DNA of 64,000 nucleotides from an uncultured Bdellovibrionales bacterium (GCA_964488025.1 CAZATJ010000003.1:4294-68293), one strand, 5' to 3'. Shown: positions 8,251 through 59,154, counted from the stretch's first letter. A program made the numbers and translations. The notes: a model not told the origin generated them from the sequence alone.

Positions 8251-9516
8251 TTATTTTTTTTCAGTTTTTTCCATGCTGCGGCGAAGGATGCTTGACAGCA
8301 TCTTTTCCTCCTCGAGAGAATCGATAAGCGCCAAATGAGCCAGGCCGATTGGTGTCATGTCCTGTGGATTATTGAGCTCTCCGGTCGTGTCAACAATACG
8401 TACCACGTCCCGAGGCTGTAAAAACGAAACCTGAGGTATTTTTGGGAAAGGAAAGGAGGACCATTCCTGAGAGAGAAGTGCCTGTTTGATGCCGGGGAGA
8501 GCCGACCCGCCACCACACAAAAAAATCCGTGGCGGCAAAAGATCCGTTTCTGCGAATTCCATAAGTGATAATTCCACCCCGCCAAGCCATATCCGGCAAT
8601 CATCGGCGAATAAGGCAGCGACCCGGGACATATCCTCATTTTTGAGCCGATTATTGGCATAATCGATTTTCATGCGCTCCGCCACATCAAAACTGAGTTG
8701 AAATTCCTGTGCTAGGCGTTTGGTAAAGGCTCTTCCTCCCAAGGCGAACATCTTTGTCCCTTCGAGTCCGCCATTACGCACGACAGCGATGTCGGTTGTT
8801 CCCCCACCGATGTCGATAAAAATAGCGCTGAAGTCAATCATGTCATCCACTTCGACGGATCGTGCGACCGCATAAGGCTCGGCGGCAATCGTCAGGAGAT
8901 CAAGTTCAAGTTCTTCGGCAATCGTTTCCAAAGCACCTAGATGGACGATTGGCGCATAGGCGTTGAACACGCTCATAGACACTTCTCTTCCCTGAAAATT
9001 AACGGGGTTAGCGACGGGATAGCCGTCAATACGGACATCGACGATAGCAGCGTTAATGAGTTTTACGTCGATATCATCTTTCCCCATTTCCCAGGAAATT
9101 TGCCTCTTGATTCGTTCGTAAGCTTTATCCTGAACCTTTTGGATAATCATCTTCAGTTCCGGAACACCGATATGCATAGCCGGATTAACGCGTTCATAGT
9201 GTACGGTAGTGGTCGTGCCCTTGACCAGTTCGCCGGCGATTCCGATGATACTTCTTTCGACATTTTTCACTCCAGCCTTCTCTTTAGCAAGAGCGATGGC
9301 CTGACGGGAAGATTCGATGACTCCATTAATATCGGAAACTGCTCCGCTTTGCATATTTCCTATTTTTTGAACCACTCTTCCCACGCCGATAACGACACCG
9401 CGATGTTCATTTTTTTCAATGCGAAAAATAAGCGCCTTGACAACTTCCGTGCCAATATCCAAAGCAAGCACCAAATCAGATTCTTGTTTCCAGGAAAAAT
9501 GAGAGAAGAGACCCAT
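8251..9516 (-). CDS. ftsA: Cell division protein FtsA (actin-like ATPase)
   Basis: It has the phosphate-1 motif LALDIGTEVVKALIF and the phosphate-2 motif IFIDIGGGTTDIAVV. These are actin/Hsp70-fold motifs. Confidence 0.85.
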   Translation of the reverse strand: MGLFSHFSWKQESDLVLALDIGTEVVKALIFRIEKNEHRGVVIGVGRVVQKIGNMQSGAVSDINGVIESSRQAIALAKEKAGVKNVERSIIGIAGELVKGTTTTVHYERVNPAMHIGVPELKMIIQKVQDKAYERIKRQISWEMGKDDIDVKLINAAIVDVRIDGYPVANPVNFQGREVSMSVFNAYAPIVHLGALETIAEELELDLLTIAAEPYAVARSVEVDDMIDFSAIFIDIGGGTTDIAVVRNGGLEGTKMFALGGRAFTKRLAQEFQLSFDVAERMKIDYANNRLKNEDMSRVAALFADDCRIWLGGVELSLMEFAETDLLPPRIFLCGGGSALPGIKQALLSQEWSSFPFPKIPQVSFLQPRDVVRIVDTTGELNNPQDMTPIGLAHLALIDSLEEEKMLSSILRRSMEKTEKK

Positions 9517-9571
9517 AGAACATTTTTGTTTTTTAACTGACGTCTTTTTTTATTATACACCCTCTTTCACT

Positions 9572-10612
9572 TCATGAGGGAAGCGATGAGAGGTGTTCTG
9601 GAGTGATAGCTCCAATCATGGCATCCACATCACTTTGAAACAAGAGCCCCGCGATTGCTCCGTAAAATCCGACAACGCTGCCGCTGTTTGCCATGCCATA
9701 GCGGAGCGCTTCCGGAAGGGTTTTCCCCATCAAATGCGCCGCAAAAAATCCCGACGTGAAGGCGTCACCAGCACCGGTGCTATCGACGACTTGGCTCCGC
9801 GTATGGATCGGACAAAACCAGTATGCTTCACCGTCATAGCCCCAGGAACCGCGCCTTCCATCAGTCATACCGATAATCTTCGCTCCAGCAGAATGAAGTT
9901 TTTCCAAAAGAAACAATTCGTCATTGAGCGATTCATCACTTGGTCTCGGGACAGATTGTGAGAGGAGTTCTATCGCCTCATCCTTATTGAGAAGGAGGAC
10001 GTCCACCGATGGCAGGGATTCAAGAACAAGTTTCGGATCATCTTTTATGTTGTGTTGACCGGGATTGAGAGCCAGAGAGAGTCCAAATTTTTTCTTCGCC
10101 TGCAAAAGGGTAGCGAGGTTCTTTTTCCAGTCTCCGTTTAAGGCACTCACAAAAAGCCAAGTGGCGGACGCCAGTTTCTTTTCCTCCACACAGAGGCGCT
10201 CATTGGCATCACGATTATGAAAAATGGTTCGCTCGCCACTTTGCGTAAGTACGATAATGGCGGAGAGGTCCGTTTTGGCATCATCGTAGCGAGTAAGGAG
10301 ACTCGTATCCACTCCTTCTTTTTTGAGCGAATCCGTAATGAAATTTCCCACTTCATCATTTCCAATACAACTGTAAGTCGCTACGCTCTTTCCGAAGCGC
10401 GCCAGTCCGACTGCCACGTTCCCCGCCACACCACCTAGTGCCTCAAAACGATCTTCGACGCGATATTTTCCTCCCAATTCGAAAGCAACTTTCTGCTTGG
10501 CGGTAATATCCTCCGGAGTATCGATTACTATTCCTTCGGCAGTTGGAAAAAAAATATCTTTCGATACGGAACCAACACAGATAACCTCAGGATTTTTTGT
10601 ACGAAACCACAT
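9572..10612 (-). CDS. PfkB-family carbohydrate/nucleoside kinase (ribokinase-like)
   Basis: It carries the PfkB signature DSTGAGDAFTSGF and a Gly-rich N-terminal motif. Confidence 0.75.
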   Translation of the reverse strand: MWFRTKNPEVICVGSVSKDIFFPTAEGIVIDTPEDITAKQKVAFELGGKYRVEDRFEALGGVAGNVAVGLARFGKSVATYSCIGNDEVGNFITDSLKKEGVDTSLLTRYDDAKTDLSAIIVLTQSGERTIFHNRDANERLCVEEKKLASATWLFVSALNGDWKKNLATLLQAKKKFGLSLALNPGQHNIKDDPKLVLESLPSVDVLLLNKDEAIELLSQSVPRPSDESLNDELFLLEKLHSAGAKIIGMTDGRRGSWGYDGEAYWFCPIHTRSQVVDSTGAGDAFTSGFFAAHLMGKTLPEALRYGMANSGSVVGFYGAIAGLLFQSDVDAMIGAITPEHLSSLPS

Positions 10613-10622
10613 AATCGAAAAA

Positions 10623-11903
10623 TTAATGAATCGCCGCGTATATCTCGAGAAGACGATTGTACTTGCTCAGGCGCTCTCCGCGAGAAAGCGATCCGGATTT
10701 GATGAATTCCGCTCCCGTACCGACAGCCAAATCAGCGATAAAATCATCCGTTGTTTCTCCGGAACGATGGGAAATCACGCGCTTCATAGCCTGGTCACGA
10801 GCCAGACGCATACAATCAAGCGTTTCAGAAACAGTACCGATCTGATTCGCCTTAATAAGTACGGCATTGCAAGATTTTTTTTCAATGGCTTTCATGAGAC
10901 GCTCCACGTTGGTGACCAAGAGGTCATCCCCGATAAGCATGAGTGGTCGTTTCCAGGCAGTCTCTTCTTTTTCCAATTTTTCCCTCATGGTCGCCCAACC
11001 ATCCCAGTCCTCTTCATGAAGGCCATCTTCAATGGAGACGACCGCATATTTTTCCATCCATTCGCGGTATACGTTGGTAAGACTTTCACGGGAAAGCATC
11101 ACACCTTCCGGCTTCAAAAGATATTGATCTTCTGTTTTGTCATAGAAAGAATCCGCGGCAACATCCAAACCGATAAAAATATGTTCACCGGTCCGGTAAC
11201 CCGCCAGAGTAATAGCCTGACCAATAAGCTCCAGCGCCTGAGCATGACTTTCTACTCGTGGAGCAAAACCGCCCTCATCGCCTACGGCCACCGTGAAGCC
11301 GTTCTGTTCAAGCAACTTCTGCAACGCATGAAAAACCTCGCTCCCGGCACGCAATTGTTCGGGGAACGTACTGATGCCAAAAGGAACAATCTTGAATTCC
11401 TGCACTGAAAGGCCGGAATCAGCATGCTTACCACCATTCACGATATTGAACATCGGAATGGGAAAATGATGAGCTACTCGTTCTGTTCCATACAAATGAG
11501 CAATGTGTTCGTAAAGTGGAATTTTTGCCGACAGCGCCGCTGCCCGACAGACAGCGAGTGAAACTCCAAGAATGGCATTGGCTCCGAGACGCGATTTGTT
11601 AGGCGTTCCATCGAGCGTCTTCATTTTTTCATCGAGTCCTTCCTGATCGCTTGCTTCCATGCCCCGGACCGCTTCGGCGATTTCAGTATTCACAAAACCA
11701 ACAGCGCGAAGTACGCCCATACCATGAAAACGTGAGGTATCATTATCTCTCAGTTCTATGGCTTCAAAGGCTCCCGTCGACTTGCCGGAGGGGACGCCGG
11801 CTTTAGCCACCGTACCATCATCCAGAGTGACTTTCACTTCTACGGTCGGTTCTCCCCTGGAATCAAGGATTTCTCTCCCCACCACCTCGGTGATACGCGC
11901 CAT
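10623..11903 (-). CDS. eno: Enolase
   Basis: It starts MARITEVVGREILDSRGEPTVEV, and the enolase signature SHRSGETED-like region (SHRSGETTDDF) is present. Confidence 0.9.
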   Translation of the reverse strand: MARITEVVGREILDSRGEPTVEVKVTLDDGTVAKAGVPSGKSTGAFEAIELRDNDTSRFHGMGVLRAVGFVNTEIAEAVRGMEASDQEGLDEKMKTLDGTPNKSRLGANAILGVSLAVCRAAALSAKIPLYEHIAHLYGTERVAHHFPIPMFNIVNGGKHADSGLSVQEFKIVPFGISTFPEQLRAGSEVFHALQKLLEQNGFTVAVGDEGGFAPRVESHAQALELIGQAITLAGYRTGEHIFIGLDVAADSFYDKTEDQYLLKPEGVMLSRESLTNVYREWMEKYAVVSIEDGLHEEDWDGWATMREKLEKEETAWKRPLMLIGDDLLVTNVERLMKAIEKKSCNAVLIKANQIGTVSETLDCMRLARDQAMKRVISHRSGETTDDFIADLAVGTGAEFIKSGSLSRGERLSKYNRLLEIYAAIH

Positions 11904-11959
11904 AATTATGAATTTCAATAAATAATTTCAATGATTTCGGAAGGTTCCTTTTCAGTATA

Positions 11960-13009
11960 TCATGCCTCCAGTGCGAGGAGTCCGGGAAGTGTTTTCCCGC
12001 TCAGGTATTCCAGCATCGCGCCACCACCAGAAGAAACAAAACTGATTTTTTCCAGGGAATTTGATTTTTCCAATACCGCAAGCGACTCTCCCCCGCCGAT
12101 AACAACATAGGCACCGCTATGAAGAATGGCGTGAAGGATTGCTTCCGTTCCGATATCATATGGTTTTTCTTCAAATTTCCCCATCGGTCCATTCCAAATG
12201 ATTGTTTTGGCCGTACCTATGAACTGAGTGTAATAAGCGATGGTCTGTGGGCCAATATCCAGGCGCGCCGAGGATTCAAAGTCCTTGGGAAGAAGCACTT
12301 GTTCAGGAAAAGAAAGATTTTGATCCAAAGCTTCGTTGGCAACCTTTCCCCCGACCAGGATAGCGTCATAATTTTTTGCCAATTCTTCAATAAGAGGGAG
12401 CTTCGTTTCAATTTTGGCACCGCCAATAATCGCGAGAGCAGGATGTTCGGGAAAAAGGCGTATCCGGTTTAATTCCGTCACCTCTTCAATGAGACGCAGA
12501 CCAGCATAGGCAGGAAGAATACGGGTAATAGCCTCCACGGAGGCATGGGCCCGATGACAGACACTGAAGGCTTCGTTAACATAAAGAGTGAATGGCGCCG
12601 CCAATCGTCGGGAAAAATGCTCATCATTGGCTTCTTCTTCCGGGTAAAAACGGACATTCTCAAGCAGAAGCACCTGATTGGGAGACATGTCGGCGAGAGC
12701 TTTTTCTACGACCTCGCCGATACAGTCGGGAACAAAGATAACTTTTTTCCCGAGAGAACGTTCCACGGAAGTCACGAGTCTTGCCACGGAATAGGTCTTA
12801 TCATATTTCCCTTCCGGACGACCGAAGTGGGTAAGAATCGCCACTCTGGCTCCAGGCGCCGAAGTGATAAGATCGACTGTTTTTTTCACGATATCCAAAC
12901 GGAAGTGTTCTTCTACGCCGGAGATATTGCTTTGTTCGATATTGAAATCGACCCGCAAGAGAATCCGCTGATTGTCGCAATGAGCCGCTTCAACGCTTCG
13001 GAGTGTCAT
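11960..13009 (-). CDS. pgk: Phosphoglycerate kinase (short form)
   Basis: It has RVDFNIE, ILTHFGRPEG and VLLLENVRFYPEEEAND, which are PGK signatures. Confidence 0.8.
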   Translation of the reverse strand: MTLRSVEAAHCDNQRILLRVDFNIEQSNISGVEEHFRLDIVKKTVDLITSAPGARVAILTHFGRPEGKYDKTYSVARLVTSVERSLGKKVIFVPDCIGEVVEKALADMSPNQVLLLENVRFYPEEEANDEHFSRRLAAPFTLYVNEAFSVCHRAHASVEAITRILPAYAGLRLIEEVTELNRIRLFPEHPALAIIGGAKIETKLPLIEELAKNYDAILVGGKVANEALDQNLSFPEQVLLPKDFESSARLDIGPQTIAYYTQFIGTAKTIIWNGPMGKFEEKPYDIGTEAILHAILHSGAYVVIGGGESLAVLEKSNSLEKISFVSSGGGAMLEYLSGKTLPGLLALEA

Positions 13010-24950: not shown

Positions 24951-25046
24951 GGTGGACCACATCCTACTCAGTTGGAACTGTATTATAGCAGAACTCTCGG
25001 CTTGGCAGGAACTCGGCATGGCTATTGAGCAGGCTCAGCCAACGCA
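24951..25046. repeat. Repeat R1 (~95 bp), copy 1 of 2
   Basis: It is about 78-80% identical to 25991-26087 by hand alignment. It lies immediately 3' of the minus-strand gene 25047-25508. Confidence 0.7.
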
Positions 25047-25508
25047 TTAAACTAAAGATAGGTCGCCACTGATGATCTGAGGATGCATTCCAAGAATCTC
25101 TTGTTTGTAGGACAGCTCAGACGATACTGGATTTAAAATATAGATCTTCTTCTTCAAATAGAAAGCGACTCCGATTTCAATCAAAGTATTACCACCGACA
25201 TAACCGTTAATACCTCTTTTTTCGTGGTTGACGACCAAAATTCCATCACACCAGTCAATTTTTTCATAATGATCATTAATAGCCCCTTCTTTCATATTCC
25301 AAATCTTGTGTCCTACTGGAAACGCATCAATACCACCATTCTGTTCAATGTATTGACCGAAATAAACTTTCTTGCCACCCCCAAATTCTTTCGGTACTTC
25401 GAGAGCAAGTTCTGGAATTTTGACTTCGTGACCTTGTTTTACTAGTTCGTCTCTAGCTGATTCCATTTCTTTATAAAATCCAATGCTACCGCAAATTGTT
25501 ATTTTCAT
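25047..25508 (-). CDS. Nucleoside 2-deoxyribosyltransferase-like (Rossmann-like) protein
   Basis: It starts MKITICGSI and later reads DGILVV...GGNTLIEIGVAFYLKKKIYIL. This matches the pattern of the NDT/DNPH1-like fold. The family assignment is tentative. Confidence 0.45.
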   Translation of the reverse strand: MKITICGSIGFYKEMESARDELVKQGHEVKIPELALEVPKEFGGGKKVYFGQYIEQNGGIDAFPVGHKIWNMKEGAINDHYEKIDWCDGILVVNHEKRGINGYVGGNTLIEIGVAFYLKKKIYILNPVSSELSYKQEILGMHPQIISGDLSLV

Positions 25509-25510
25509 AA

Positions 25511-25972
25511 TTAAATAATTTTAAGTTCTTTCAACCACTCATACCAAACCGGCTCAAGCCCAGGCGATTTCTCCCAATCATCGTGGCTGATATCTCCACG
25601 AACATACTCCTCAGTTTTGACTGCGAGTAGTAATAAATCATCTTTTTTACAAAAAATCGCCTGCTTTGTTTCGTCATTACTTCTTTTTACCTCGCCAAAG
25701 ACTTCAATCTGATAGATTTTCCAATAGTGCCAACTTCCACCTTCGCGCCTACAAATGTTTTCTTTTCGTCCCTCAGTTAAAAGTTTTATATTCTGTGCCT
25801 CCAGTCCGACCTCCTCCTCTAACTCTCTTTTTGCTGATTCTTCAAAAGAATTATCTCCATCAATATGGCCAGCTGGTGGCGCAAAACCAAATGGCGGTTT
25901 TTTCCTTTCTATAAGCAATAAACTACCCTCTCTCCAAACTAACATTCCTACACTGGTATGATCACATTTCAT
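25511..25972 (-). CDS. NUDIX hydrolase
   Basis: The Nudix box is GHIDGDNSFEESAKRELEEEVGL. Confidence 0.8.
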   Translation of the reverse strand: MKCDHTSVGMLVWREGSLLLIERKKPPFGFAPPAGHIDGDNSFEESAKRELEEEVGLEAQNIKLLTEGRKENICRREGGSWHYWKIYQIEVFGEVKRSNDETKQAIFCKKDDLLLLAVKTEEYVRGDISHDDWEKSPGLEPVWYEWLKELKII

Positions 25973-25990
25973 AAGGAGACTTGATAATTT

Positions 25991-26087
25991 TGTGGACTAC
26001 CTCCTACTCAATTGGAACTCTATCATAGCAGAACTGCGGGATTGGCAGGAATTGGGGATGGCTATAGAACAGGCTCGGGCAGGGTAG
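25991..26087. repeat. Repeat R2 (~95 bp), copy 2 of 2
   Basis: It is an imperfect direct repeat of R1. It lies immediately 3' of the minus-strand gene 26110-26916. Confidence 0.7.
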
Positions 26088-26109
26088 CTTTCCTACTTCC
26101 TCTACCATT

Positions 26110-26916
26110 TCAAACTCCTTTTTCATCATCAGTTTTTAGGTCCTCCTTAGCCTCCTCAACATAGTCTGCCAATTTCTTTTTCCATTTCTGTCTTGCTAAA
26201 TCATACTGAGATGGTAGATAACTTTGGTTGCTATCTTTCCTTTGTTCCGGTCGATCTAAATACACACGACGATTCTGAGTATCAAGATAGATATCGGTAT
26301 CCCCTTTCAATATTCTTGTGTTCGGTCCGGCGAGCACTACGGGTTCGAATCCTAAAACTTTTTGACAAATTTCACTGAGAAGTTTAACGGATTCCTTATA
26401 CTTTTTAAACCAAATATCTTGGCCACCAAAAATGACTGCATCGATAGAATTGTCAGCAGAAAGCTCTTTGAGTTCATTTATTCGTTTAGATAAATCTCTC
26501 CGGAACCGATCTTGATATTTACCAGAAATGGCTTTAGGATCTTGATGGCTTAAAAAAGAGATTTGTTTCTCTGTATCTCTCTGTGTTCCCACTAATATTA
26601 CACCCGTACAGTCAATGTAGTTCTGCGAAAATTTATCTTTATCATCACAACCTGAAATGATATAGGTCTTTTTATCTGGACTCACCATTGTGTCTCTGGA
26701 GCTTTCTGGAAGCCAAAAGAAATCTACGTTCTCCCCTCGATTCATGATACGCAGCATTGCTTCTGTGGATTGACTATCTCTATCGTAAGAATCAACAATA
26801 GAAGCCATAATAGGTCGAACACCCTCGGCAAGATGTTCATTGTGGAGAGGGTTTATTTCTTTTGCTTTTTCTCCTTCTGGTTTCTTTTTCCCTGCTTCAG
26901 AAAAGACTTCAAACAT
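26110..26916 (-). CDS. Hypothetical protein (268 aa), no recognisable family
   Basis: It is a long ORF that fills the interval. No motifs were recognised. Confidence 0.4.
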   Translation of the reverse strand: MFEVFSEAGKKKPEGEKAKEINPLHNEHLAEGVRPIMASIVDSYDRDSQSTEAMLRIMNRGENVDFFWLPESSRDTMVSPDKKTYIISGCDDKDKFSQNYIDCTGVILVGTQRDTEKQISFLSHQDPKAISGKYQDRFRRDLSKRINELKELSADNSIDAVIFGGQDIWFKKYKESVKLLSEICQKVLGFEPVVLAGPNTRILKGDTDIYLDTQNRRVYLDRPEQRKDSNQSYLPSQYDLARQKWKKKLADYVEEAKEDLKTDDEKGV

Positions 26917-26940
26917 AATAAATTTGATATATTACTTTTG

Positions 26941-26972
26941 TGGACCTGGGGAGAATCGAACTCCCGACTCAG
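26941..26972 (-). pseudogene. tRNA 3'-half-like fragment (T-arm plus acceptor 3' strand)
   Basis: The minus strand reads CTGAGTC-GGGAG-TTCGATT-CTCCC-CAGGTCC-A. It is complementary to the 5' half at 27105-27138. Confidence 0.5.
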
Positions 26973-27002
26973 TCCCGCACCTTTGGATCTTTATAAAATT
27001 TG

Positions 27003-27073
27003 TGGACTTACCGGGAATCGAACCCGGAACTCAGCAATGCGAATGCTGCGTGATACCATTTTACTATAAGCCC
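27003..27073 (-). tRNA. tRNA-Ala (anticodon CGC), 71 nt, CCA not encoded
   Basis: Folded by hand. The acceptor GGGCTTA/TAAGTCC includes a G3:U70 pair. The anticodon stem is CAGCA/TGCTG with loop TTCGCAT. The T-arm is CCGGG-TTCGATT-CCCGG. Confidence 0.8.
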
Positions 27074-47844: not shown

Positions 47845-48333
47845 TTAAGCGATCATGGGGGTTGACCACGAAAAATCGAAGTTGGGTTTTGGCCGAGGCC
47901 GGGTCAACCGCTTCTGATGCAAAATGACCCACTCGTCAACCACCTTCAGGAACTCTTCCGGCGTATCAGCTGAGGTGTAGAAGAAATTCGGACTGTCGCC
48001 GTCCCACATGGCCGCCGACCAACATTCGACCTTGAAGGTCGCCCCCTCCAGGTCCTTTTCCTTCCATTCGATCAGGAAGGCCGTGCACTTGGCCAGATAC
48101 GGACCAGTGTCACTGCTTCGCATTGGTCGAAAAGAATTCGCCAGGAGCTGCTTCAGCCCGCGAAGCTTCTGCTGCCCTTCCTTCGTCTTCGGCCGATCAA
48201 AGGCCATCTCGACTTGGATATTCTTCCACTCGCCCCCCTTCTTCGGGAGAAGAACGGTGGAGTCATCCGCCCAAACGACATGACTGATAAGAACGGCTAG
48301 AAAAACGGCCACAAACCTGCTGATCTGCTTCAT
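47845..48333 (-). CDS. Secreted hypothetical protein
   Basis: The signal peptide is MKQISRFVAVFLAVLISHVVWA. Confidence 0.45.
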   Translation of the reverse strand: MKQISRFVAVFLAVLISHVVWADDSTVLLPKKGGEWKNIQVEMAFDRPKTKEGQQKLRGLKQLLANSFRPMRSSDTGPYLAKCTAFLIEWKEKDLEGATFKVECWSAAMWDGDSPNFFYTSADTPEEFLKVVDEWVILHQKRLTRPRPKPNFDFSWSTPMIA

Positions 48334-48401: not shown

Positions 48402-49403
48402 TTACACCCTGTTCCATTTTATGAACTTAGCAATGTTCATATCAAACCATGGACGATGAGCCACCGGCTCATGCGCGTATTTTTCTTTCAGATAGGCATA
48501 GGTCTTTTCAAGACCGACCTCGAGACTCGTCATCGGATAAAATCCGAATTCTTCACTCGCGCGGCTAATATCGAGTACAATCTTCTGCACGTCGAACGGA
48601 CGCTTTTCCAAACGCCTGATTTTCGGTATCGACTGAGTAGTCTTTGATAACATCAGCACCAATTCAAAAAGCGCCACACCTCGACCGCTTCCTACGTTGT
48701 ACGTCGAGTTGGTATGTATCTGTTCGAAATTCTCCGCCATGAAACCGGTCACGTCTTTCACGTACACATAATCACGCACGGTATTGCCGTAAACATCGAG
48801 CGCTTCATGCTTCATCATACGCTTCATGAAAACCGGAATCGCCCCCTGAATACCATCGGGATTCTGGCGTTCGCCGTACGGATTGGCAATGCGGTAGATG
48901 ACGAACGGGAGCCCGTACTGGCGGCGATAGAAATGCAGGTGTTCTTCGATGGACAGCTTGGTTACCGCATACGGCGACACCGGCCGTGGCTGAGCGGTCT
49001 CATCGACGATTTCTTCCAGGGCGTTACCATAGACAGCGCCCCCAGAAGACGGGTAGATCACTTTTTTCACGCCGTGTTTCACGCACAAATCGAGAAGCCT
49101 GAGCGTCCCTTCCAGATTGAAACGGATTTCAGTATGAGGATCATTGGCCGTCGAGGCCGGCGTACTGAGCGACACGAAATGAAAAACGTAATCACTCCCC
49201 TTGACGGCTCGAGACAGGTGCCATTTATTGAGAAAATTTCCCTTATAGAATTCGATCTTCCCCTTCAAATGGTTCAGGTTCTTGATACGTCCTTTGCGAA
49301 AACGATCAAACACGCGTACTTCATAGCCGCGTGCGAGTAAATCATCTACCAGGTGACTGCCCAAAAAACCGTCACCACCGACTACCAGGCACTTCTTGCC
49401 CAT
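48402..49403 (-). CDS. NAD-dependent epimerase/dehydratase (extended SDR)
   Basis: It has KKCLVVGGDGFLGSHLVDDLLARGYEV and a YxxxK active site. Confidence 0.8.
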   Translation of the reverse strand: MGKKCLVVGGDGFLGSHLVDDLLARGYEVRVFDRFRKGRIKNLNHLKGKIEFYKGNFLNKWHLSRAVKGSDYVFHFVSLSTPASTANDPHTEIRFNLEGTLRLLDLCVKHGVKKVIYPSSGGAVYGNALEEIVDETAQPRPVSPYAVTKLSIEEHLHFYRRQYGLPFVIYRIANPYGERQNPDGIQGAIPVFMKRMMKHEALDVYGNTVRDYVYVKDVTGFMAENFEQIHTNSTYNVGSGRGVALFELVLMLSKTTQSIPKIRRLEKRPFDVQKIVLDISRASEEFGFYPMTSLEVGLEKTYAYLKEKYAHEPVAHRPWFDMNIAKFIKWNRV

Positions 49404-49473
49404 AAAAAATAGACCCATTACTGTTAACGAGCCATAGTACATTATTTCTTTCGTTTTGTCAACCCCGCACCTT

Positions 49474-51717: not shown

Positions 51718-53103
51718 ATGAACCACCAAACGACCCTCAATCCGCTTCACGAGCCCATCCTTTGGGTTTTCTTGATTGCCGTGACCGCCTTCACTGCCGT
51801 TGCCAGCTTTCTTCTTCACCTTTCTCTTTTTCTTCCACTTCTTCTCGTCGGTGGTATTCTCGCCCTCATTCTCCTCTTTCGGGATCCGATACTCCTCCTC
51901 TTCGGACTCATCATCGTGCGCATGTCGCTTGATTATTCATCACAGTATTTCAGCATCACCCTGTATGACATCACTCTCTCTCTTTCCCAATTTTTGGGTG
52001 TCGGCATCGCCCTGCTTGGTCTTATGCTTCTCATTCTGAAACGGAAACAATTGGCTACCTTTCCTCTTATCATCCCCTTCCTTATCATCTTCCTCTGGGG
52101 CAGCATGACCCTGTTTTATTCCCTCTCCACAAAAGCAACCCTCCAGGAACTGCTCCGAGTCTTCGACCTGTTCGCTCTCGGCTTTCTCGCCTATGTCACT
52201 ATACGAACCACCAAAGACTTCAGACATCTGCTCCAAACCTTCTTCATAGCCAGCGTTCTGCCGGTCGCCTTCGGTCTCTATCAGTTCGTATCCCATATCG
52301 GACTCCAGGATGAAAATGTTTCCGTACTCCGCATCTTTGGCACTTTCAGTCATCCTAACGTCTACAGCCTCTTTCTTTTTTCCGTGATCGTCTTCGGATT
52401 TCTCTATCTGATACTTTTTGGAGAAAGCGGCACGAAACGCCTGATGGTACTAATCATTCTCGGCGCACTCTCCGCCATGCTCGTTCTCACTTTCGCCCGA
52501 GTAGCCTGGATCGCGTTGTTTCTTTTCATCTTCCTGGTGGCACTCTTCCGCTATCGCCTCCTCCTCTTCCCACTCATCCTCTTTCCCTTCGTCCTCTTCG
52601 TTTTCTCGACAAACTTTCAGGAACGCGTTCATGAAAGCTTCCGCTCCGATCCGGACAGCTCCCTGGTCTGGCGACAGACGCTCTGGCAAGATGTCACCCG
52701 CTATTCCATCCAGGAAGGACGCCTTCCCTTCGGATCCGGCATGGATACCTTTCCCAAAGTCTCCGAGAGTCTCCGTGGCACGAATCATGGCCCCAACGAT
52801 CCACATAATGATTTCGTGAAATTCTTCGTCGAGGGCGGAGTGGTCGGAATCACTGCCTTCATTCTCTACCTCTTTTCCCTGGGCTATCTCCTCATTCAGA
52901 AATACCGTGAAAGTCAAAAAGGGAGCGCGCTCAAAATCGCTTTCGGTATCATGTTCATCTTCTTTCTCACTCTCGAACTCTCCGCCCTGACCGATAACAT
53001 CTTCAAAAACACGCCGGTCCAGTGGCTCTTCTTCACCGCCTTCGGCGCTCTCCTAGCGCTTTCGGAAACAAAGCAAAAATTTTCCGAAAAAATCACTTCT
53101 TGA
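51718..53103 (+). CDS. O-antigen ligase / Wzy-like polymerase family membrane protein
   Basis: It has more than 10 TM helices. The periplasmic loop reads NHGPNDPHNDFVKFFVEGGVVG (Wzy_C-like). Confidence 0.65.
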   Translation: MNHQTTLNPLHEPILWVFLIAVTAFTAVASFLLHLSLFLPLLLVGGILALILLFRDPILLLFGLIIVRMSLDYSSQYFSITLYDITLSLSQFLGVGIALLGLMLLILKRKQLATFPLIIPFLIIFLWGSMTLFYSLSTKATLQELLRVFDLFALGFLAYVTIRTTKDFRHLLQTFFIASVLPVAFGLYQFVSHIGLQDENVSVLRIFGTFSHPNVYSLFLFSVIVFGFLYLILFGESGTKRLMVLIILGALSAMLVLTFARVAWIALFLFIFLVALFRYRLLLFPLILFPFVLFVFSTNFQERVHESFRSDPDSSLVWRQTLWQDVTRYSIQEGRLPFGSGMDTFPKVSESLRGTNHGPNDPHNDFVKFFVEGGVVGITAFILYLFSLGYLLIQKYRESQKGSALKIAFGIMFIFFLTLELSALTDNIFKNTPVQWLFFTAFGALLALSETKQKFSEKITS

Positions 53104-53205
53104 GTAAAAAAAGAAGGGCTCCGAAACGTTGCTTACGCATTATTTCGAAACCCTTGTGCTGGAACCGCGTCACGCTGGACGCGAGTCCCTGCCGGCCTGG
53201 CCGAC

Positions 53206-53814
53206 TTACTTCTTGGTGGCGAGCGCCGTACGCGTCGCCTGGTCGAGCTTGACCACCGTCGAGCCGTCGAAGCACCAGCCCGTCATGGGACTGCCATTGA
53301 CGTTCTTGGTGGACCACGCCGCCGGATGTCCAGACCAGACGCGCTGGCCGTCCGGCAAGACGCCGACCCAGGTCACGACGCGGCAGCGCTCTTCGCCCTT
53401 CTGGAAGGTCATCGTCACCGCGCCGTCAGCGAGCTTGCCGCTCGCCTTGGCCTTGTCGACCGTGATGGCCATGAGCTCTTCGCTCATTTCGCCCCAGTCA
53501 CGACCGAGGCCCATGGCGTAGATGGTCGTGCCGGCGGGCAACGTGTACAGACTGACTTGCTTCTTCGTCGGCGCATCTTGCGCCTTCTTCATGGGCTTCA
53601 TGCCCTTCAAGTCGGTGAACGAGACGCCGATGACGCCGGTCAGGGTGACGGTGTAGGCATTGTCCTTGACAGCGGATGCCGTCAAGCCGATGCCACCGCC
53701 GCCAGCCGGGTCGTACCCTGCAACACCGGACAGCGGGTCCGCGGCCATGACGGCTGCGGAGACGGAGATGATCGCCAGAGCGATCAGGCTTTTGGGAACG
53801 AACTTCGTCTTCAT
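53206..53814 (-). CDS. Secreted hypothetical protein (high-GC segment)
   Basis: The signal peptide is MKTKFVPKSLIALAIISVSAAVMA. GC is about 60-65%. Confidence 0.5.
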   Translation of the reverse strand: MKTKFVPKSLIALAIISVSAAVMAADPLSGVAGYDPAGGGGIGLTASAVKDNAYTVTLTGVIGVSFTDLKGMKPMKKAQDAPTKKQVSLYTLPAGTTIYAMGLGRDWGEMSEELMAITVDKAKASGKLADGAVTMTFQKGEERCRVVTWVGVLPDGQRVWSGHPAAWSTKNVNGSPMTGWCFDGSTVVKLDQATRTALATKK

Positions 53815-54036
53815 ATCGTGCTCCTTCGCACAGTGGTTGGGTGATGAGATGTGCCTGACACATCGACCCAACCGAGGTTGGATGTTCAGGCACATTTCAA
53901 ACCTTGTCGGTCGGTATCTCTTGCAAGACACCATCTGGACTCATCACTATACACCCATTTCCATTTTCTGTCAAGATGTCACTTTTTGCTCTATAAAGCC
54001 AATATTTCCTCTATCTTGCATCTGAAAATATGGCTG

Positions 54037-54822
54037 TTAGTGCCAGTAGGCCTTGGGCACTCGAATGGTCAAAAACCGACCACCCGTATCTCCGAACCAG
54101 TCAGACATCCAGGCCTCGCAGTTGTTGGCCGGGTTGTCGCTTCGGTTCTTCCGGCTCTCTGGGTTCTGGCACTCCGGATCGAAACCCGTATAGCCGTCAC
54201 CCATACCCCGCCACCAGTCGAGACCGATCTGCAGCCTGGCCGCTCCGGAGATCCTGACCTCCATTTCGACCAGGTAGCGCGCTCCCGGCTTGTTATCCAA
54301 CCGTGGATCGCTCCAGTTGTGAAAAAGCCGCCGGGCAATTTTTCCGGGGTCGACGTTATACGCCGCCTCTTCATAATCGTAGACCAGCTCGCTCTCACCG
54401 GTACCGTCCGTCTCGCCGAACCACTGTTCGACGTCCCGACCATTTCTGGTAAGTGTCCTCGGAAAGATGCCACCACTCCCGACGCCGTCCGTCCCCTTGC
54501 CGTCAAAGGTGATGGTCTGCACCAGCTTCGGAGCAGACGTGCCCACCTGCTCGTAGACCTTCCACGAACGGATAGAGACCTTGGATTCTCCTACAGCACA
54601 GGACAAGGCATTTGCCACGGTGATGTGACTGATGACCGTATGGAAATACGGTGGCGGCGTTGCTCTGCCTGGATGATGGTGCTCTCCCTTCCAGATGGCG
54701 CCTTGCGGAACCAGAGGCAAAGTGTTCACCAATGTCCCTGGCGGACAGACCTGCGTCACGGGGTTGGCCCACAGTGACGCAGTGCACAAGAGCCAAGCTA
54801 TGGCTATCAACAACCTTGTCAT
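54037..54822 (-). CDS. Secreted hypothetical protein (high-GC segment)
   Basis: The signal peptide is MTRLLIAIAWLLCTASLWA. The start is chosen at that Met. Confidence 0.5.
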   Translation of the reverse strand: MTRLLIAIAWLLCTASLWANPVTQVCPPGTLVNTLPLVPQGAIWKGEHHHPGRATPPPYFHTVISHITVANALSCAVGESKVSIRSWKVYEQVGTSAPKLVQTITFDGKGTDGVGSGGIFPRTLTRNGRDVEQWFGETDGTGESELVYDYEEAAYNVDPGKIARRLFHNWSDPRLDNKPGARYLVEMEVRISGAARLQIGLDWWRGMGDGYTGFDPECQNPESRKNRSDNPANNCEAWMSDWFGDTGGRFLTIRVPKAYWH

Positions 54823-54847
54823 TGTGAACCTCCTTCTGCGGTTGAGA

Positions 54848-55306
54848 TCAGCAGCCAGAAGACTGCAGGTTTTTGATGATGAGCTCGCCGTCGACCCCTT
54901 GCAGGCCGATGCGAACCACGACGTCCGACATGTTGGGCGGAAAGATCCATTCCCGCTTGATAGCACGGAATTCATCCGTCGGACCGGCACGCCAGTCGGA
55001 TGCCCACTTCTGGGACCCGCCGGCCATCATCTCGTAGTCGAAATGGACGCCGTGGTAGGACTTGCTCCCACCCTTGACGCCCATCGCCTTGTACTCGGCC
55101 GAAAGCGTGAACTTCTTGCCGGCACAGTTCTGAGGAACCAGGCGCAGACCCGGGAATTCATCACCCCCAGACGCACCGGTGATGGTGTAGGTGTCGCCGT
55201 CCTTCTTGACAGCGCCTTCCGTCTGCCACGCATCGGCAGCGAAAGCGCTCGCCGCAGCGAAGAAAAGGGGGAAAAGAGCGAATGCTGGAAAAGAGGCGGT
55301 TCTCAT
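54848..55306 (-). CDS. Secreted hypothetical protein (high-GC segment)
   Basis: The signal peptide is MRTASFPAFALFPLFFAAASAFA. Confidence 0.5.
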   Translation of the reverse strand: MRTASFPAFALFPLFFAAASAFAADAWQTEGAVKKDGDTYTITGASGGDEFPGLRLVPQNCAGKKFTLSAEYKAMGVKGGSKSYHGVHFDYEMMAGGSQKWASDWRAGPTDEFRAIKREWIFPPNMSDVVVRIGLQGVDGELIIKNLQSSGC

Positions 55307-55436
55307 GTGAAACTCCTGTTGGTAAGGGGCTGGGAATCATTTCGTCCGCACGTCGCGAACCGTACAGTATAGCAAAAAATAGGTATTTTGTCAAGCCGAG
55401 TAAACACATTTCTGCTCTTAAAAAATCGTGTAAAAA

Positions 55437-55476
55437 AGATCAAGGGCAGGTCGTTCGGATGAACTTCCTGCCCTGT
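55437..55476 (-). terminator. Rho-independent terminator after the LysM gene
   Basis: On the minus strand, gggcagg...cctgccc is followed by ttgatcttttttacacgatttttt. Confidence 0.5.
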
Positions 55477-55600
55477 GATTGCGAATGATGTCGCTGACTT
55501 CCTTCTCTCTTTGAACCGGTACGTCACCGCGTGCTCCTGTATTGCTACAGTGCATGTTGGCGCATACCCTTTTTATAGTCTCATAAGAGAGCGTGTTCAG

Positions 55601-57133
55601 TCAGTCGATCGCAACGCCCAGAGCTTCAAGGCTCCGGATCATCGCGTTCCACCGTTCTTCCTGCACATGGAGCTTGTAGTGCCGCCCAGCGCCGTAGGTG
55701 AGCGTCGCTCCGAGGGTGTTGCCGATATCGGCGAAGTGGGGCCCTGCTCCCAGCCCCCACACCTTATTGACAGTCCGGAGACCGACATAGGCATGACCAG
55801 AAGTAGGATTAGGCGCCGTTTTGTTGGCACCGACTTCCACGAAAGGCTGCAGTTTGGCTGCCAGACCTTGGTTGCCCAAGTTCTTCGACAAGAACACTCG
55901 CCCGCCGACGCCCAGGATGTACTTCGTATCCGGAATCGTCGATGCATCAAGTGCTTTGCCTTCCCAGCTGTGCGACTTCGTTTGTGAGAACGGGTCGCAA
56001 AAGCTGGCCCAAAGCTGCCATTCGGGAACCCACTTCTCGCCATCCTTTTCACGGGAGGCGTCAGTGTAGCTCGCCGATGCACACCACAGGCTCGTGTACC
56101 GTTTTTGCTGGTACTGGCCGCTTGCGTCATGACCCCGCTCCCACAGGCCACCGATCATGGGAAACTTGATCCCCACGTCACGACGGTTGTTGAAGCTGAA
56201 CTTCTGAGCGAGGCCAAAGGCAGCCGTCTCACCGCTGTAGCGATACCCATCGGGGGTACCACCATTCCAAAGGCTAAACGATCCGCCACCGCCGAGCGCG
56301 TAGCGTCCCCAGTCGTAATACTTGATGACCGGGTAGCCCGCCCCTTCGCCGCCGGCATAGCGCACGTCTTTGTCACCACCGATGAAGAAGCCTAAGTCCC
56401 AATCATAGTCGCGGGCGACCTGTTCGGCCTCCTGCTCTTGCAGTGGAACAACAGGCTCCTCCGGTCGAACCATTGTCGGAACGAGTTCCGGTTCCGGTAC
56501 TTTCGAAACCGTTACCGGAGGCGGAGCAATCACCACCTTGGTGAAGGTCGAGGGATTGCCACAGCGACGCGGATCAGCAAGGAAGATTCCTCCGCCCAAG
56601 TCGTATGTGTCCATGACTTCCGGCTGCCCACCTTCTTCAGGAGAACAAATCGGCTTGTCATGAATGTGCACCACCTTACCGGTCTTGCTCTGGTACAGCA
56701 TTTCATTGAAGATCTGCCTTCCCACAAGCTCCTTGCTTGTCGCCTTCTCGCCAAGGACAACCTTCTCCTTCGCCACCGCCTTTTGTTCCGGCGAGAGCGT
56801 CGTCAATAGGTCGATTCCTTGGAGCGTCCGTGCCAGATTGTGTTCCGGATTGAACGGAGCCACACCAAGCGTGATGCACGCCTGTGACACAGCAGGTTGA
56901 GATGATCTCTTCATGGCGACGTCACGACCCGGGAACCGGATCGTTTGGCCGACCGTAATGAGGTTGCAGTTGGCAAGACCGTTGTAGGAGCAAAGCCCCT
57001 TCCAGTCGTAGCCTGCCTGCTTCGCGATCGTGCCGAGCGTCTCGCCCGACACGACCTTATGAGCCGCTTCTCCGGCCCACGCACCACTCGCCCCGAAGAG
57101 CAAAGCGGTGGCGAGTAGCCACTTCTTGTTCAT
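55601..57133 (-). CDS. Secreted LysM domain protein with a Gly/Trp/Tyr-rich C-terminal domain (high-GC segment)
   Basis: The signal peptide is MNKKWLLATALLFGASGAWA. The LysM domain reads HKVVSGETLGTIAKQAGY...LITVGQTIRFP. Confidence 0.6.
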   Translation of the reverse strand: MNKKWLLATALLFGASGAWAGEAAHKVVSGETLGTIAKQAGYDWKGLCSYNGLANCNLITVGQTIRFPGRDVAMKRSSQPAVSQACITLGVAPFNPEHNLARTLQGIDLLTTLSPEQKAVAKEKVVLGEKATSKELVGRQIFNEMLYQSKTGKVVHIHDKPICSPEEGGQPEVMDTYDLGGGIFLADPRRCGNPSTFTKVVIAPPPVTVSKVPEPELVPTMVRPEEPVVPLQEQEAEQVARDYDWDLGFFIGGDKDVRYAGGEGAGYPVIKYYDWGRYALGGGGSFSLWNGGTPDGYRYSGETAAFGLAQKFSFNNRRDVGIKFPMIGGLWERGHDASGQYQQKRYTSLWCASASYTDASREKDGEKWVPEWQLWASFCDPFSQTKSHSWEGKALDASTIPDTKYILGVGGRVFLSKNLGNQGLAAKLQPFVEVGANKTAPNPTSGHAYVGLRTVNKVWGLGAGPHFADIGNTLGATLTYGAGRHYKLHVQEERWNAMIRSLEALGVAID

Positions 57134-57151
57134 GATGATCCTTCCATAGGT

Positions 57152-58291
57152 TTAGGGTGAGCTGCTCGGAAGCAGCCCGGTGTGGACTACTTCTTTCTGC
57201 ATAGCACCTTTCTCCTTGGTGCGGAACGACAAACGCTCTTTCAGAAGATCGAGCGCTTCCCACAATGCCTTCACGCGTGGCACGATCGCTTCGCCGATTT
57301 CCCAACCGGACTTGCGTCCGTCGAAATCGAGATCGAAGGAAACATTTCTCGAGGACGAATCCCCGAGATACTGCTCCAGATCGCTCTTCAGCGAGTTGTA
57401 CCCGCGCAAGTACCGACCCAGGGCTGCATTGGCCTCGGGTGCCGAGTACTGCCGTTCCCCGAAGGGCCCGACGTACAGGTCTTCACCGGTACTCGCCAGT
57501 GCGACACCGACCGAAATCGCCGTGCCAATCACCGAAGGGATGGCAATGGTCAGACCTCGCTCGGCAATGCGTTCGCCTTGGGTGACCTGGCGCAAATCGC
57601 CCACGACTTGCGGACGGAGCGCCAGCGGGTGGATGGAATAGACCCGGCCATCGCTTTGCAGCGACGCCTTGGAAAAATCCGCCCGAATACCGGAGAGGAG
57701 CCGTTCCCCTGCCCCAGTATCTTTCACTTCGTGAGCACGAGCCTCGGAAGGAAATGTCTGCAGAAACGCTGCATCCACTATCCCAAGGCAATTCTTGCTC
57801 GGTGGCAGCCTGAGTAGATCGCCGGAGACGGTGAGAAGCTTGGTGTACGCGCCCGAAGACACGTACACGTTCACTGGCTCACCGGCCGGCACCACCAGGT
57901 CAGACATGACCACAGTAAGCACCGGAGAGGTCAAGGGGTTTTTCATGATGGCAGGAAAGAATCGCTTCTCTCCGGTGCGCTTGTTCATCACAAACGCTTG
58001 CCACACATAGCGCGGGTAGTGTTCCTGAGTGCGAGCTTCCTCGCCCTCCACGAACCATCCCAGCGCATCCCCGATCCACTCCGGTGGGATCCGTACCTGA
58101 ACCACCGTCGCTTTGGTCAGCGACCGAGTGTCAACACCTTGGAGCGCGAGCGCTTTCCAGTGTTGCGGTACTTCACACACCTGTTCACCGGTAATCTTGC
58201 CCGAGGGCAGTTCATCGCCGGTGAACCGAACATTTGTGGCACACCCCGAGAGGAGTGCCAGCACGATCGCGAACAAAACGCGATAACTCAT
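57152..58291 (-). CDS. Lipoprotein, hypothetical (high-GC segment)
   Basis: The lipobox is LALLSGC. Confidence 0.5.
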   Translation of the reverse strand: MSYRVLFAIVLALLSGCATNVRFTGDELPSGKITGEQVCEVPQHWKALALQGVDTRSLTKATVVQVRIPPEWIGDALGWFVEGEEARTQEHYPRYVWQAFVMNKRTGEKRFFPAIMKNPLTSPVLTVVMSDLVVPAGEPVNVYVSSGAYTKLLTVSGDLLRLPPSKNCLGIVDAAFLQTFPSEARAHEVKDTGAGERLLSGIRADFSKASLQSDGRVYSIHPLALRPQVVGDLRQVTQGERIAERGLTIAIPSVIGTAISVGVALASTGEDLYVGPFGERQYSAPEANAALGRYLRGYNSLKSDLEQYLGDSSSRNVSFDLDFDGRKSGWEIGEAIVPRVKALWEALDLLKERLSFRTKEKGAMQKEVVHTGLLPSSSP

Positions 58292-58337
58292 GTCGCTCTC
58301 CTGGGTTGGGTTGCATTTCCTCTATCCGACGGACAGA

Positions 58338-58365
58338 GGCACTAAACTAACTAAACTAACTGAAC
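58338..58365. repeat. Short tandem repeat (aactaaact x ~3) at the right edge of the high-GC segment
   Basis: Visible as cactaaactaactaaactaactgaac. Confidence 0.5.
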
Positions 58366-58488: not shown

Positions 58489-59154
58489 TTACACCAACAT
58501 CTCATTCAAAGGGACTTCGTCATCTCTCGAAGCATACCGGGGACTCGATTCGAATTTGACGACGATAAAGAAGGCTGAGAGAAACACTCCGGCCAAAAAA
58601 GCAGCAAAGGTTACTTTCAGCATCTTGGAAAAGTCGGGATTTTCGGAAAGAATTGGTCCGGAAAGAATGCGGATCTCCACGCTCTTCTCATCACCGCCAC
58701 GGAACAGGGTATTCTTCTCGGTCAGCACGATGGCAATGCCATCCATGACACGAGCAATATCGCGTTCGCGATCGCCTTTAACCGTGACACTCAAGATACC
58801 AAGCTCAAGGTTATTTTCTACGGCGACCATCTTTTTCCAGGCAATCAGACGCCGTCCCTTATCAAAGGGTAGAAATTCTTTGTTGACCTTGCCGGTTTCT
58901 ACCAGCGCATCAACGAAACGCTCACTATAGAGCGCTTCACCCAAAACCTTCCCCAGGTACTCAGAAGATTTGAACTGAGTATAGAAGTCCTGATTGGTAG
59001 CATTCGTCTGGACAACCAAAAAGTCCATCTTGGTCTGGAAGGGCCTCTCCGTCATAATAAGACCGAAGAATCCCAAGGCGCCAAAAAGGAGACCCCAAAT
59101 AATAAGGGTTCCAATCTTCGACCGCAACAACACGAACAGATACTGATTTCCCAT
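58489..59154 (-). CDS. Wzz/YveK-like chain-length determinant N-domain protein
   Basis: It has two TM helices flanking a periplasmic domain and a Wzz-like N-terminus reading LLRSKIGTLIIWGLLFGALGF. Confidence 0.5.
   Translation of the reverse strand: MGNQYLFVLLRSKIGTLIIWGLLFGALGFFGLIMTERPFQTKMDFLVVQTNATNQDFYTQFKSSEYLGKVLGEALYSERFVDALVETGKVNKEFLPFDKGRRLIAWKKMVAVENNLELGILSVTVKGDRERDIARVMDGIAIVLTEKNTLFRGGDEKSVEIRILSGPILSENPDFSKMLKVTFAAFLAGVFLSAFFIVVKFESSPRYASRDDEVPLNEMLV

Follow-up and report, generated by a model that had tools for sequence, protein, structure and literature searches.

The segment at positions 53110-58365 of a 64,000-nucleotide stretch of DNA (CAZATJ010000003.1:4294-68293, assembly GCA_964488025.1, deposited as an uncultured Bdellovibrionales bacterium) is probably a lineage-specific envelope cassette of Candidatus Moranbacteria/Moraniibacteriota, one that has been held at a fixed site since before the sampled clade diverged and has occasionally been replaced within the clade. 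The whole 64,000-nucleotide stretch is called the window throughout. The core of the cassette is an operon encoding a lipoprotein and a second protein, in which a signal peptide, a LysM domain and a linker precede a predicted 12-stranded barrel. One to four small secreted proteins follow, with strong promoters of their own. A first-pass annotation of the window had described the segment as a high-GC insertion in a cell-envelope glycan locus and offered two origins for it, recent horizontal acquisition from a high-GC donor or an assembly chimera. Neither origin was upheld.

Homologues of three of the five cassette proteins were collected from 5.8 billion proteins at E <= 1e-3, which yielded 38 for the LysM protein, 41 for the lipoprotein and 20 for the protein of 202 amino acids (aa). 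Almost all informative labels among them were Candidatus Moranbacteria or Moraniibacteriota (Parcubacteria, Patescibacteria), and SecA of the window belongs to a 90%-identity cluster shared with Candidatus Moranbacteria proteins. The comparison of homologue lineages that the first-pass annotation had proposed as a check thus placed the cassette families and the flank SecA in one lineage, against its own suggestion of a foreign donor. A profile of the barrel alone matched 176 cluster representatives among 1.84 billion; of the 150 matches listed, most were about 400-720 aa long and carried the barrel C-terminally. Two contexts of the barrel family read outside the first search set were both on contigs resembling those of the candidate phyla radiation (CPR). 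A scan of the genome collection with a 16-sequence alignment returned three loci.

Genomic context was read for homologues with 68% (P0003), 59% (P0008), 45% (P0018), 38% (P0027) and 32% (P0038) identity. The common gene order is PBP, GreA, an aminoacyl-tRNA synthetase, SerS, BNR, RRF, RseP and a Wzz-like gene, then the lipoprotein, the barrel and the secreted proteins of the cassette, then Wzy, a methyltransferase and GT4. Seven relatives (loci L008, L011, L013, L016, L019, L020 and L021) have the cassette at this one site, and among them identity to the window falls to 66% for RRF and 25% for the barrel domain. Percent identities to the window in L008, L011 and L013, respectively, were 87, 83 and 70 for RRF, 78, 76 and 67 for RseP, 69, 66 and 44 for the lipoprotein, 71, 63 and 47 for the LysM-barrel protein, and 62, 62 and 38 for the 202-aa protein. 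In these three and the window the cassette proteins diverge in step with the flanks. The accessory genes have counterparts as well. The 152-aa protein has homologues of 35-40% identity at the same locus in L011, L012 and L016, while the 261-aa protein has homologues of 29-36% identity at or near the locus in L013, L019 and L021, some of them paralogue pairs. The step in GC content was also found in L008 (cassette 54-59%, flanks 44-49%), L011 (55-60% and 41-47%), L016 (53-60% and 45-48%), L019 (57-61% and 43-49%) and L021 (58-64% and 49-56%). L020 showed a weak contrast, and L013, with a background already at about 53%, showed none.

GC content was 57.8% in 53110-58365 and 47.8% in the remainder of the window. 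Among all 5.2 kb intervals (mean 48.7%, standard deviation 2.5) the maximum lay at 53101. GC content per kb was 55.5-58.8% inside the segment, so that the sustained rise claimed in the first-pass annotation stands, while its figure of 60-65% is too high except at 53.2-53.8 kb, where 63-65% is reached locally. The claimed shift at third codon positions was borne out, with a third-position GC (GC3) of 0.67-0.86 in the cassette genes (0.71 for the cassette overall) and 0.51 +/- 0.07 in the other 51 open reading frames (ORFs). Second-position GC (GC2) was raised too, 0.45-0.50 versus 0.37 +/- 0.04. Tetranucleotide usage, normalised for base composition, also deviated (r = 0.70 between cassette and rest, versus 0.91 +/- 0.03 for 48 host intervals of 5.2 kb). 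The left edge lies at the Wzy_C stop codon (53103) and a terminator, and the right edge lies immediately upstream of the lipoprotein start (58291). The tandem repeat previously reported at the right edge as aactaaact in three copies exists, with a unit of ACTAAACTA and a measured copy number of 2.8; it lies upstream of the lipoprotein gene and is trivial.

The high GC2 is due to the amino acid composition of the exported cassette proteins. GC3 is raised by a preference for codons ending in G or C, and most relatives show the preference in their orthologous cassettes irrespective of background GC. Four-fold degenerate sites at conserved residues of the flanks had an excess identity over the composition expectation of only 0.07-0.16, which is near saturation. 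At such saturation a composition brought in from a donor could not have lasted passively, and a recent import common to the relatives is impossible. Four-fold sites of the cassette had an excess identity of 0.21-0.32 in the close group, though its amino acid identity is lower; against L013 these sites were saturated in both cassette and flanks. We infer that the GC3 excess is not residual donor composition. Selection on synonymous sites would maintain the excess and slow synonymous change, probably in connection with high expression, and exchange of cassettes within the clade may help to maintain it.

A comparison with ribosomal genes had been suggested in the first-pass annotation. The window contains only two genes for ribosomal proteins, L21 and L27, both small; their codon shift away from bulk genes and that of the cassette are correlated (Spearman 0.36, p = 0.005). 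These two have GC3s of 0.58-0.59 and an effective number of codons (Nc) of 40-45, compared with 0.50 and 53 in bulk genes. Within the cassette, codon usage is most extreme in the 202-aa gene (GC3 0.86, Nc 36). Translational selection as a complete explanation was rejected, because the departure of Nc from its GC3 expectation does not exceed that of bulk genes. High GC3 as a general trait of exported proteins in this genome was also rejected, as the neighbouring BNR lipoprotein has a GC3 of 0.50.

The LysM domain that had been recognised in the 510-aa protein was confirmed by Pfam (PF01476, residues 25-68, E = 8e-10, 38.9 bits with the cut-off at 20.9), and LysM chains in the PDB matched down to E = 7e-13. 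No other Pfam family was found in the full protein or in residues 92-510, at E <= 10 as well. The protein was modelled with AlphaFold2 (AF2) from 38 homologues (mean pLDDT 86). The model predicts a small alpha/beta domain, a proline-rich linker, a barrel of 12 long antiparallel strands and a C-terminal amphipathic helix. Most barrel strands have one hydrophobic or aromatic face and one face of small or polar residues, and Gly makes up 16% of the segment and aromatic residues about 15%. LGATLTY, at the end of the last strand, resembles a beta-signal. A comparison list for this protein, with unlabelled figures, contained BrkA (17.2), Hbp (16.0), intimin (15.1), OpcA (15.0), AIDA-I (14.9), NalP (14.6), FapF (13.3) and KdgM (13.3). 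The predicted fold of the barrel is typical of outer membrane (OM) proteins of double-membrane bacteria.

The 510-aa protein was compared with known wall-tethered and autotransporting barrels. OmpM tethers of double-membrane Terrabacteria have an N-terminal SLH domain, a stalk and a C-terminal beta-barrel (bioRxiv 10.1101/2021.05.31.446380), and the order of a wall-binding domain, an extended linker and a predicted C-terminal barrel is the same in the 510-aa protein. It differs from OmpM in carrying LysM rather than SLH (LysM being the only family found in Pfam and NCBIfam scans), in a proline-rich linker rather than a coiled coil, in a 12-stranded, autotransporter-like barrel and in its extra alpha/beta domain and C-terminal helix; its host is presumed to have a single membrane, and no sequence relationship was detected. 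With the inverse autotransporters intimin and invasin (type Ve) it shares a 12-stranded barrel at the level of the fold, and its architecture is analogous to the LysM-barrel part of intimin. Unlike these, it has an extra middle domain before the barrel and no C-terminal passenger, only 29 residues, mostly helix, following the last strand; at E <= 10 Pfam gave LysM and no match to the inverse-autotransporter barrel model. It differs from the classical autotransporters (type Va; BrkA, Hbp, NalP, AIDA-I, EspP) in lacking both a match to the Pfam Autotransporter model and a beta-helical passenger, in place of which LysM and the small alpha/beta domain are N-terminal. Its barrel is preceded by the proline-rich linker, not by an alpha-helix, and is followed by a helix. 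Since the N-terminal part includes a wall-binding module, its export through the pore is unlikely. The 510-aa protein therefore lacks defining features of OmpM tethers, inverse autotransporters and classical autotransporters alike. Lipoprotein-barrel pairs for exopolysaccharide export (PelC-PelB, AlgK-AlgE, PgaB-PgaA) differ in that the cassette lipoprotein matches no known family in sequence or fold and no synthase-type partner genes were seen. Neither the barrels of these pairs nor the 12-stranded sugar channels KdgM and NanC are the closest to that of the 510-aa protein.

The N-terminus of the 379-aa protein reads MSYRVLFAIVLALLSGC, and G16 and C17 are invariant in 39 homologues. With its signal peptide, lipobox and invariant Cys it is a predicted lipoprotein. 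A model of the protein has a beta-rich domain (residues 49-220) and a long helical hairpin (284-360), and no known family or fold was matched in Pfam, NCBIfam or structural searches. Identity as a Wza/OPX protein was rejected, as there was no Poly_export or SLBB match in Pfam or NCBIfam at E <= 10 and no structural match. The barrel gene begins 18 nt after the lipoprotein stop codon in the window, and the two genes overlap by ATGA in several relatives, which suggests translational coupling and a shared function. In the distant member L022 the genomic context is different and the lipoprotein gene still lies just upstream of the barrel gene.

All five cassette ORFs are intact, lie on the minus strand and have conserved homologues. 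As had been proposed, all encode exported proteins, four with Sec-type signal peptides (called by eye) and one with the lipobox LSGC. The claim that the genes carry their own terminator was exceeded, two intrinsic terminators being detected, and the one 3' of the LysM-barrel gene is kept in relatives. Two sigma70-like promoters, each matching the consensus at 11/12 positions, are sited in two lower-GC gaps. Intact ORFs, conserved homologues, two promoters and two terminators support the earlier reading of the segment as a functional surface-protein module rather than junk. Scans of the five proteins with Pfam (also at E <= 10), NCBIfam and PHROGs returned LysM only, and searches of PDB sequences with the lipoprotein family and the 202-, 261- and 152-aa proteins gave nothing significant. 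No family was therefore detectable for the three small secreted proteins in Pfam, NCBIfam, PHROGs or PDB sequence searches. The best non-significant PDB matches were an endoglucanase for the 152-aa protein (E = 0.065) and a GH10-associated module for the 261-aa protein (E about 1); these hint at carbohydrate-binding modules and are unusable as evidence. A 48-nt stretch is 73% identical between the 202-aa gene (53636-53683) and the 152-aa gene (55176-55223) and encodes an N-terminal motif, AVKDNAYTVTLTG in the former and AVKKDGDTYTITG in the latter. Judged from this motif, the two secreted proteins may share a domain.

The 202-aa gene is preceded by a structured leader of ~135 nt that is conserved in L008 (11757-11892), L012 (7041-7177), L016 (11924-12063) and L020 (11915-12051). 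The first hairpin is capped by CTC-GNNA-GAG with varying tetraloops, and 11/44 predicted pairs have compensatory changes across five sequences. L020 keeps the leader although its downstream gene shows no BLAST similarity to the 202-aa protein. No Rfam family was found in the cassette or the leader at either threshold, and a covariance model of the leader found no copies outside the genomes used to build it. The leader may be a new cis-regulatory RNA.

Table 1. Features of the GC-rich cassette and its flanks (window coordinates; residue numbers where given refer to the 510-aa protein).
Feature	Position	Strand	Details
GC-rich cassette, whole	53110..58365	.	57.8% GC vs 47.8% background
Wzy_C (O-antigen ligase/polymerase-like) membrane protein, left flank, host GC	51718..53103	+	Pfam E = 1.6e-14
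Intrinsic terminator 3' of 202-aa gene, cassette left edge	53104..53155	-	hairpin 53114-53155 and U-run; -25.6 kcal/mol, z = -3.3
202-aa secreted protein, core cassette gene	53206..53814	-	signal peptide ending AVMA/AD
Structured 5' leader of 202-aa gene	53815..53945	-	two long hairpins, then a hairpin holding the Shine-Dalgarno sequence
Sigma70-like promoter upstream of 202-aa gene	53946..53974	-	TTGACA-17-TATAGT; consensus match
261-aa secreted protein, accessory gene	54037..54822	-	signal peptide ending LWA/NP
152-aa secreted protein, accessory gene	54848..55306	-	signal peptide ending AFA/AD
Sigma70-like promoter upstream of 152-aa gene	55366..55394	-	TTGACA-17-TATACT, extended -10 TG; consensus match
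Intrinsic terminator 3' of LysM-barrel gene	55429..55479	-	hairpin 55439-55479 and U-run; -28.6 kcal/mol, z = -5.8
510-aa LysM-barrel protein	55601..57133	-	signal peptide ending AWA/GE; LysM
C-terminal amphipathic helix, residues 482-504	55622..55690	-	AF2 model
Predicted 12-stranded membrane-type beta-barrel, residues 244-481	55691..56404	-	block pLDDT 89-98, mostly >95
Proline-rich linker	residues 205-240	-	AF2 model, low confidence
Small alpha/beta domain	residues 90-200	-	AF2 model
LysM domain, residues 24-77	56903..57064	-	Pfam, PDB chains, AF2 model
379-aa lipoprotein	57152..58291	-	lipobox LSGC, Cys17
Short tandem repeat ACTAAACTA x 2.8	58341..58365	.	upstream of lipoprotein gene
221-aa Wzz/CpsC-like chain-length-determinant candidate, right flank, host GC	58489..59154	-	TIGR01006 E = 1e-5, below cut-off, weak; syntenic in all relatives

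Several observations were made beside the cassette. A low-GC patch at 25000-27000 (39% GC, GC3 0.31-0.33) consists of three small genes (25047-25508, 25511-25972 and 26110-26916) and adjoins tRNA-Ala at 27002-27073. The cassette aside, it is the most atypical 5 kb interval by tetranucleotide usage (r = 0.81), and it is a better candidate for a genuine recent insertion than the GC-rich cassette. One gene outside the cassette, and one only, has a comparably high GC3 (0.70). It lies at 47845-48333 on the minus strand and encodes a secreted protein of ~162 aa with a signal peptide ending VVWA/DD and no family match. Exact look-up of the protein at 48402-49442 returned no record. The alanyl-tRNA synthetase at 4199-5965 (minus strand) is 588 aa long; the usual bacterial enzyme is longer. 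The loci also encode an ADP-forming acetyl-CoA synthetase-like gene of ~700 aa, and both genes fit a reduced, fermentative genome of CPR type. Strain variant L003 (ERZ27247820) differs from the window at 14 positions within 83 bp (55211-55293) and nowhere else in 10.8 kb. The differences fall where the 152-aa gene codes for the signal-peptide region and form a local patch of mosaicism or recombination.

The junctions of the cassette were sought in other assemblies. Exact look-up of the 510-aa protein found six contigs in six assemblies, four made with MEGAHIT and held by ENA (ERZ27247817, ERZ27247828, ERZ27247820 and ERZ27247837) and two from Logan (ERR3094295 and ERR3094294); these are independent as assemblies and possibly share samples. 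All six contain the right junction at 99.87-100% identity to the window. The left junction is spanned by L001 and L005, both of which continue into Wzy and the methyltransferase, and is reached from the left, up to 53196, by L007, the seventh contig. A chimera joining two organisms would account for the sharp change in composition at both edges and for the four contigs (L002, L006, L007 and L003) that end <~100 bp from the left edge, at 53121 (two), 53196 and 53225. These contig ends, however, sit in the terminator hairpin beside the strain-variable glycan locus, and they suggest branching of the assembly graph by co-existing strains that differ on the Wzy/glycan side. Because the junctions recur at 99.9-100% identity in assemblies from two pipelines (the right in six, the left in two), and because relatives from unrelated projects and other assemblers share the gene order, and most of them the GC step, the chimera was rejected; we see practically no chance that it is correct. 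That the cassette was recently acquired across phyla, from a high-GC donor such as an actinobacterial host, was likewise rejected and is very improbable. The cassette resembles horizontally acquired genomic islands in its sharp edges, a GC content raised by 10 points, a high GC3 and an atypical tetranucleotide signature. It differs from them in being present at the same site in all relatives examined (seven, with RRF identity down to 66%), in having homologues confined to the lineage of its host, and in the absence of mobility genes, flanking repeats and an edge tRNA. No recombinase or integrase was found among the five ORFs with Pfam, NCBIfam and PHROGs, and no direct or att-like repeats bracket the cassette. 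A blastn search of plasmid and phage collections gave no match, PHROG matches were to the LysM domain only, and the nearest tRNAs lie at 27.0 kb and 62.6 kb. The three families searched are tiny (20-41 members), their informative labels are almost all Moranbacteria, their proteins diverge along with the flanks in most genomes, and the synonymous sites of those flanks are near saturation. To our knowledge, a 12-stranded autotransporter-like barrel is not an actinobacterial type of protein.

An older transfer is compatible with the preferred reading of recent history and differs from it on the ultimate origin only. The lipoprotein and beta-barrel module would have passed from a double-membrane donor to an early ancestor of Moranbacteria and then descended vertically, which would suit a barrel fold typical of double-membrane OM proteins in a group proposed to lack an OM (PMC12102498), and a cassette whose composition and tetranucleotide signature differ from those of its host. 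We consider this unlikely, as donor composition cannot outlast the saturation of synonymous sites and no donor family can be seen: the Pfam matches included neither the Autotransporter nor the inverse-autotransporter barrel model. The small size of the barrel family, the C-terminal barrel shared by most of the matches listed and the CPR-like contexts of the two members read outside the first search set also argue against it. A possible but less than likely alternative is a pool of cassettes that Moranbacteria swap with one another through homologous recombination within their conserved flanks, as at O-antigen and capsule loci. One case in its favour is L020, whose flanks are as close to the window as those of L008 (RRF 88%, RseP 82%, GT4 80%) and whose cassette (9114-12693, compared with 53206-58291 of the window) is only 30% identical in the barrel domain and 24% in the lipoprotein, which is shorter (296 aa). 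A divergent cassette between near flanks means that swapping within the clade occurs. Deeply divergent cassette types share one site, as seen at surface-antigen loci, either by replacement or as a long-kept polymorphism. Exchange would also fit the contigs that end at the cassette edge, the mosaic patch of L003, a cassette GC of about 57-64% on host backgrounds of about 45% and about 54%, and the lower divergence, in the close group, of cassette four-fold sites relative to flank sites despite a lower amino acid identity. If such a pool existed, the distinct composition and lower synonymous divergence might reflect a shared, younger history of the cassette and not codon selection, which we likewise hold to be possible but doubtful. 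On the other side, pairwise cassette identities among the window, L008, L011 and L016 broadly track the flanks with no clear recent swap, no high-GC reservoir lineage was identified, and the difference in synonymous rate is modest (about two thirds) and would equally result from codon selection.

Several points weigh against a cassette that is resident in this lineage, fixed in place and shaped by selection on its codons. Its tetranucleotide signature is clearly atypical, as is classically the case for foreign DNA. Vertical descent does not account for everything, given L020 and the weaker correlation of the barrel domain with RRF and RseP identity (r = 0.63, compared with 0.98 for Wzy and 0.94 for GT4). 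Nc departs from its GC3 expectation no further in the cassette than it does in bulk genes, the link to expression comes from two small genes for ribosomal proteins, no GC3 excess is seen in the lipoprotein and barrel genes of L020 and L022, and exchange within the clade could yield the same GC3 and synonymous pattern. All functional statements rest on predicted structures and gene context, and neither the lipoprotein nor any of the three secreted proteins belongs to a recognisable family or fold. The host is classified by database labels, and these conflict. Two metagenome-assembled genomes (MAGs) that are species representatives of the clade, L014 and L016 (CAZIZG010000005 and CAZTBI010000001), are labelled uncultured Bdellovibrionales bacterium. 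A MAG contig labelled Undibacterium sp. (L021, GCA_041730415.1) is probably mis-binned Moranbacteria, since it shows the Moranbacteria gene order, and the conflicting public labels are probably the result of mislabelling and mis-binning.

The barrel raises a question about the cell envelope. Patescibacteria have been placed among the Terrabacteria (bioRxiv 10.1101/2021.05.31.446380) and proposed to lack an OM (PMC12102498), and the few that have been described have a single-membrane wall (PMC8871954). A conserved, wall-tethered barrel of membrane type therefore needs an explanation, and an unrecognised outer lipid layer, insertion into the OM of a host, a barrel that is not in a membrane and a mislabelled lineage are all possible. 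Literature searches on an OM or LysM proteins in Moranbacteria and on BamA or beta-barrels in Patescibacteria returned nothing on this family. The host lineage might simply have an OM, or not be true Patescibacteria, so that the barrel would be an ordinary wall-tethered OM protein and the cassette an ordinary envelope operon with biased composition. The two genomes labelled Bdellovibrionales, the lipid-facing hydrophobic face and beta-signal-like last strand of the barrel, and the combination of a wall-binding domain with a barrel, which is the architecture of an OM tether (bioRxiv 10.1101/2021.05.31.446380), fit this account. Several independent submitters, on the other hand, label the clade Moranbacteria or Moraniibacteriota, and the loci, like the annotated parts of the window, have a gene content typical of CPR genomes that are small and fermentative. 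These parts and loci, a small sample of the genome, showed no BamA, Lpt, Lol or Tol. We regard an ordinary OM host as improbable.

Under the preferred reading of a resident envelope cassette, LysM would bind peptidoglycan, the proline-rich linker would cross the wall, and the barrel, accompanied by the lipoprotein, would sit in a lipid layer as a channel or an anchor. The small secreted proteins, which have strong promoters, would be partners or cargo. Since the cassette lies inside a glycan-assembly locus, between Wzz-like and Wzy-like genes, it most likely serves to export or display a surface glycan or to make contact with a host. More speculatively, and with low confidence, an order-level clade of the CPR, presumed to be single-membraned, may conserve a peptidoglycan-tethered barrel and its lipoprotein either for an outer layer of its own, built on a LysM analogue of OmpM, or for placement of the barrel in the OM of a partner bacterium as a pore for contact or uptake. 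If this were true, the persistent GC-rich codon usage would place the cassette among the cell's most highly expressed surface structures.

What is new is a predicted peptidoglycan-tethered barrel with a lipoprotein partner in an unexpected lineage, together with a conserved compositional signature. For genome scanning the cassette is a counter-example, as it has all the compositional hallmarks of a fresh import and is yet probably old and fixed in place. Composition alone would call it a transfer or a contamination, and automated cleaning of MAGs could wrongly excise it. Its unannotated families include a confidently predicted tethered barrel, which is unexpected where an OM is thought to be absent. 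The cassette is thus a concrete, testable candidate for apparatus of the envelope or of host contact in a lineage of uncultured symbionts, and it bears on the loss or retention of outer membranes in the Terrabacteria.

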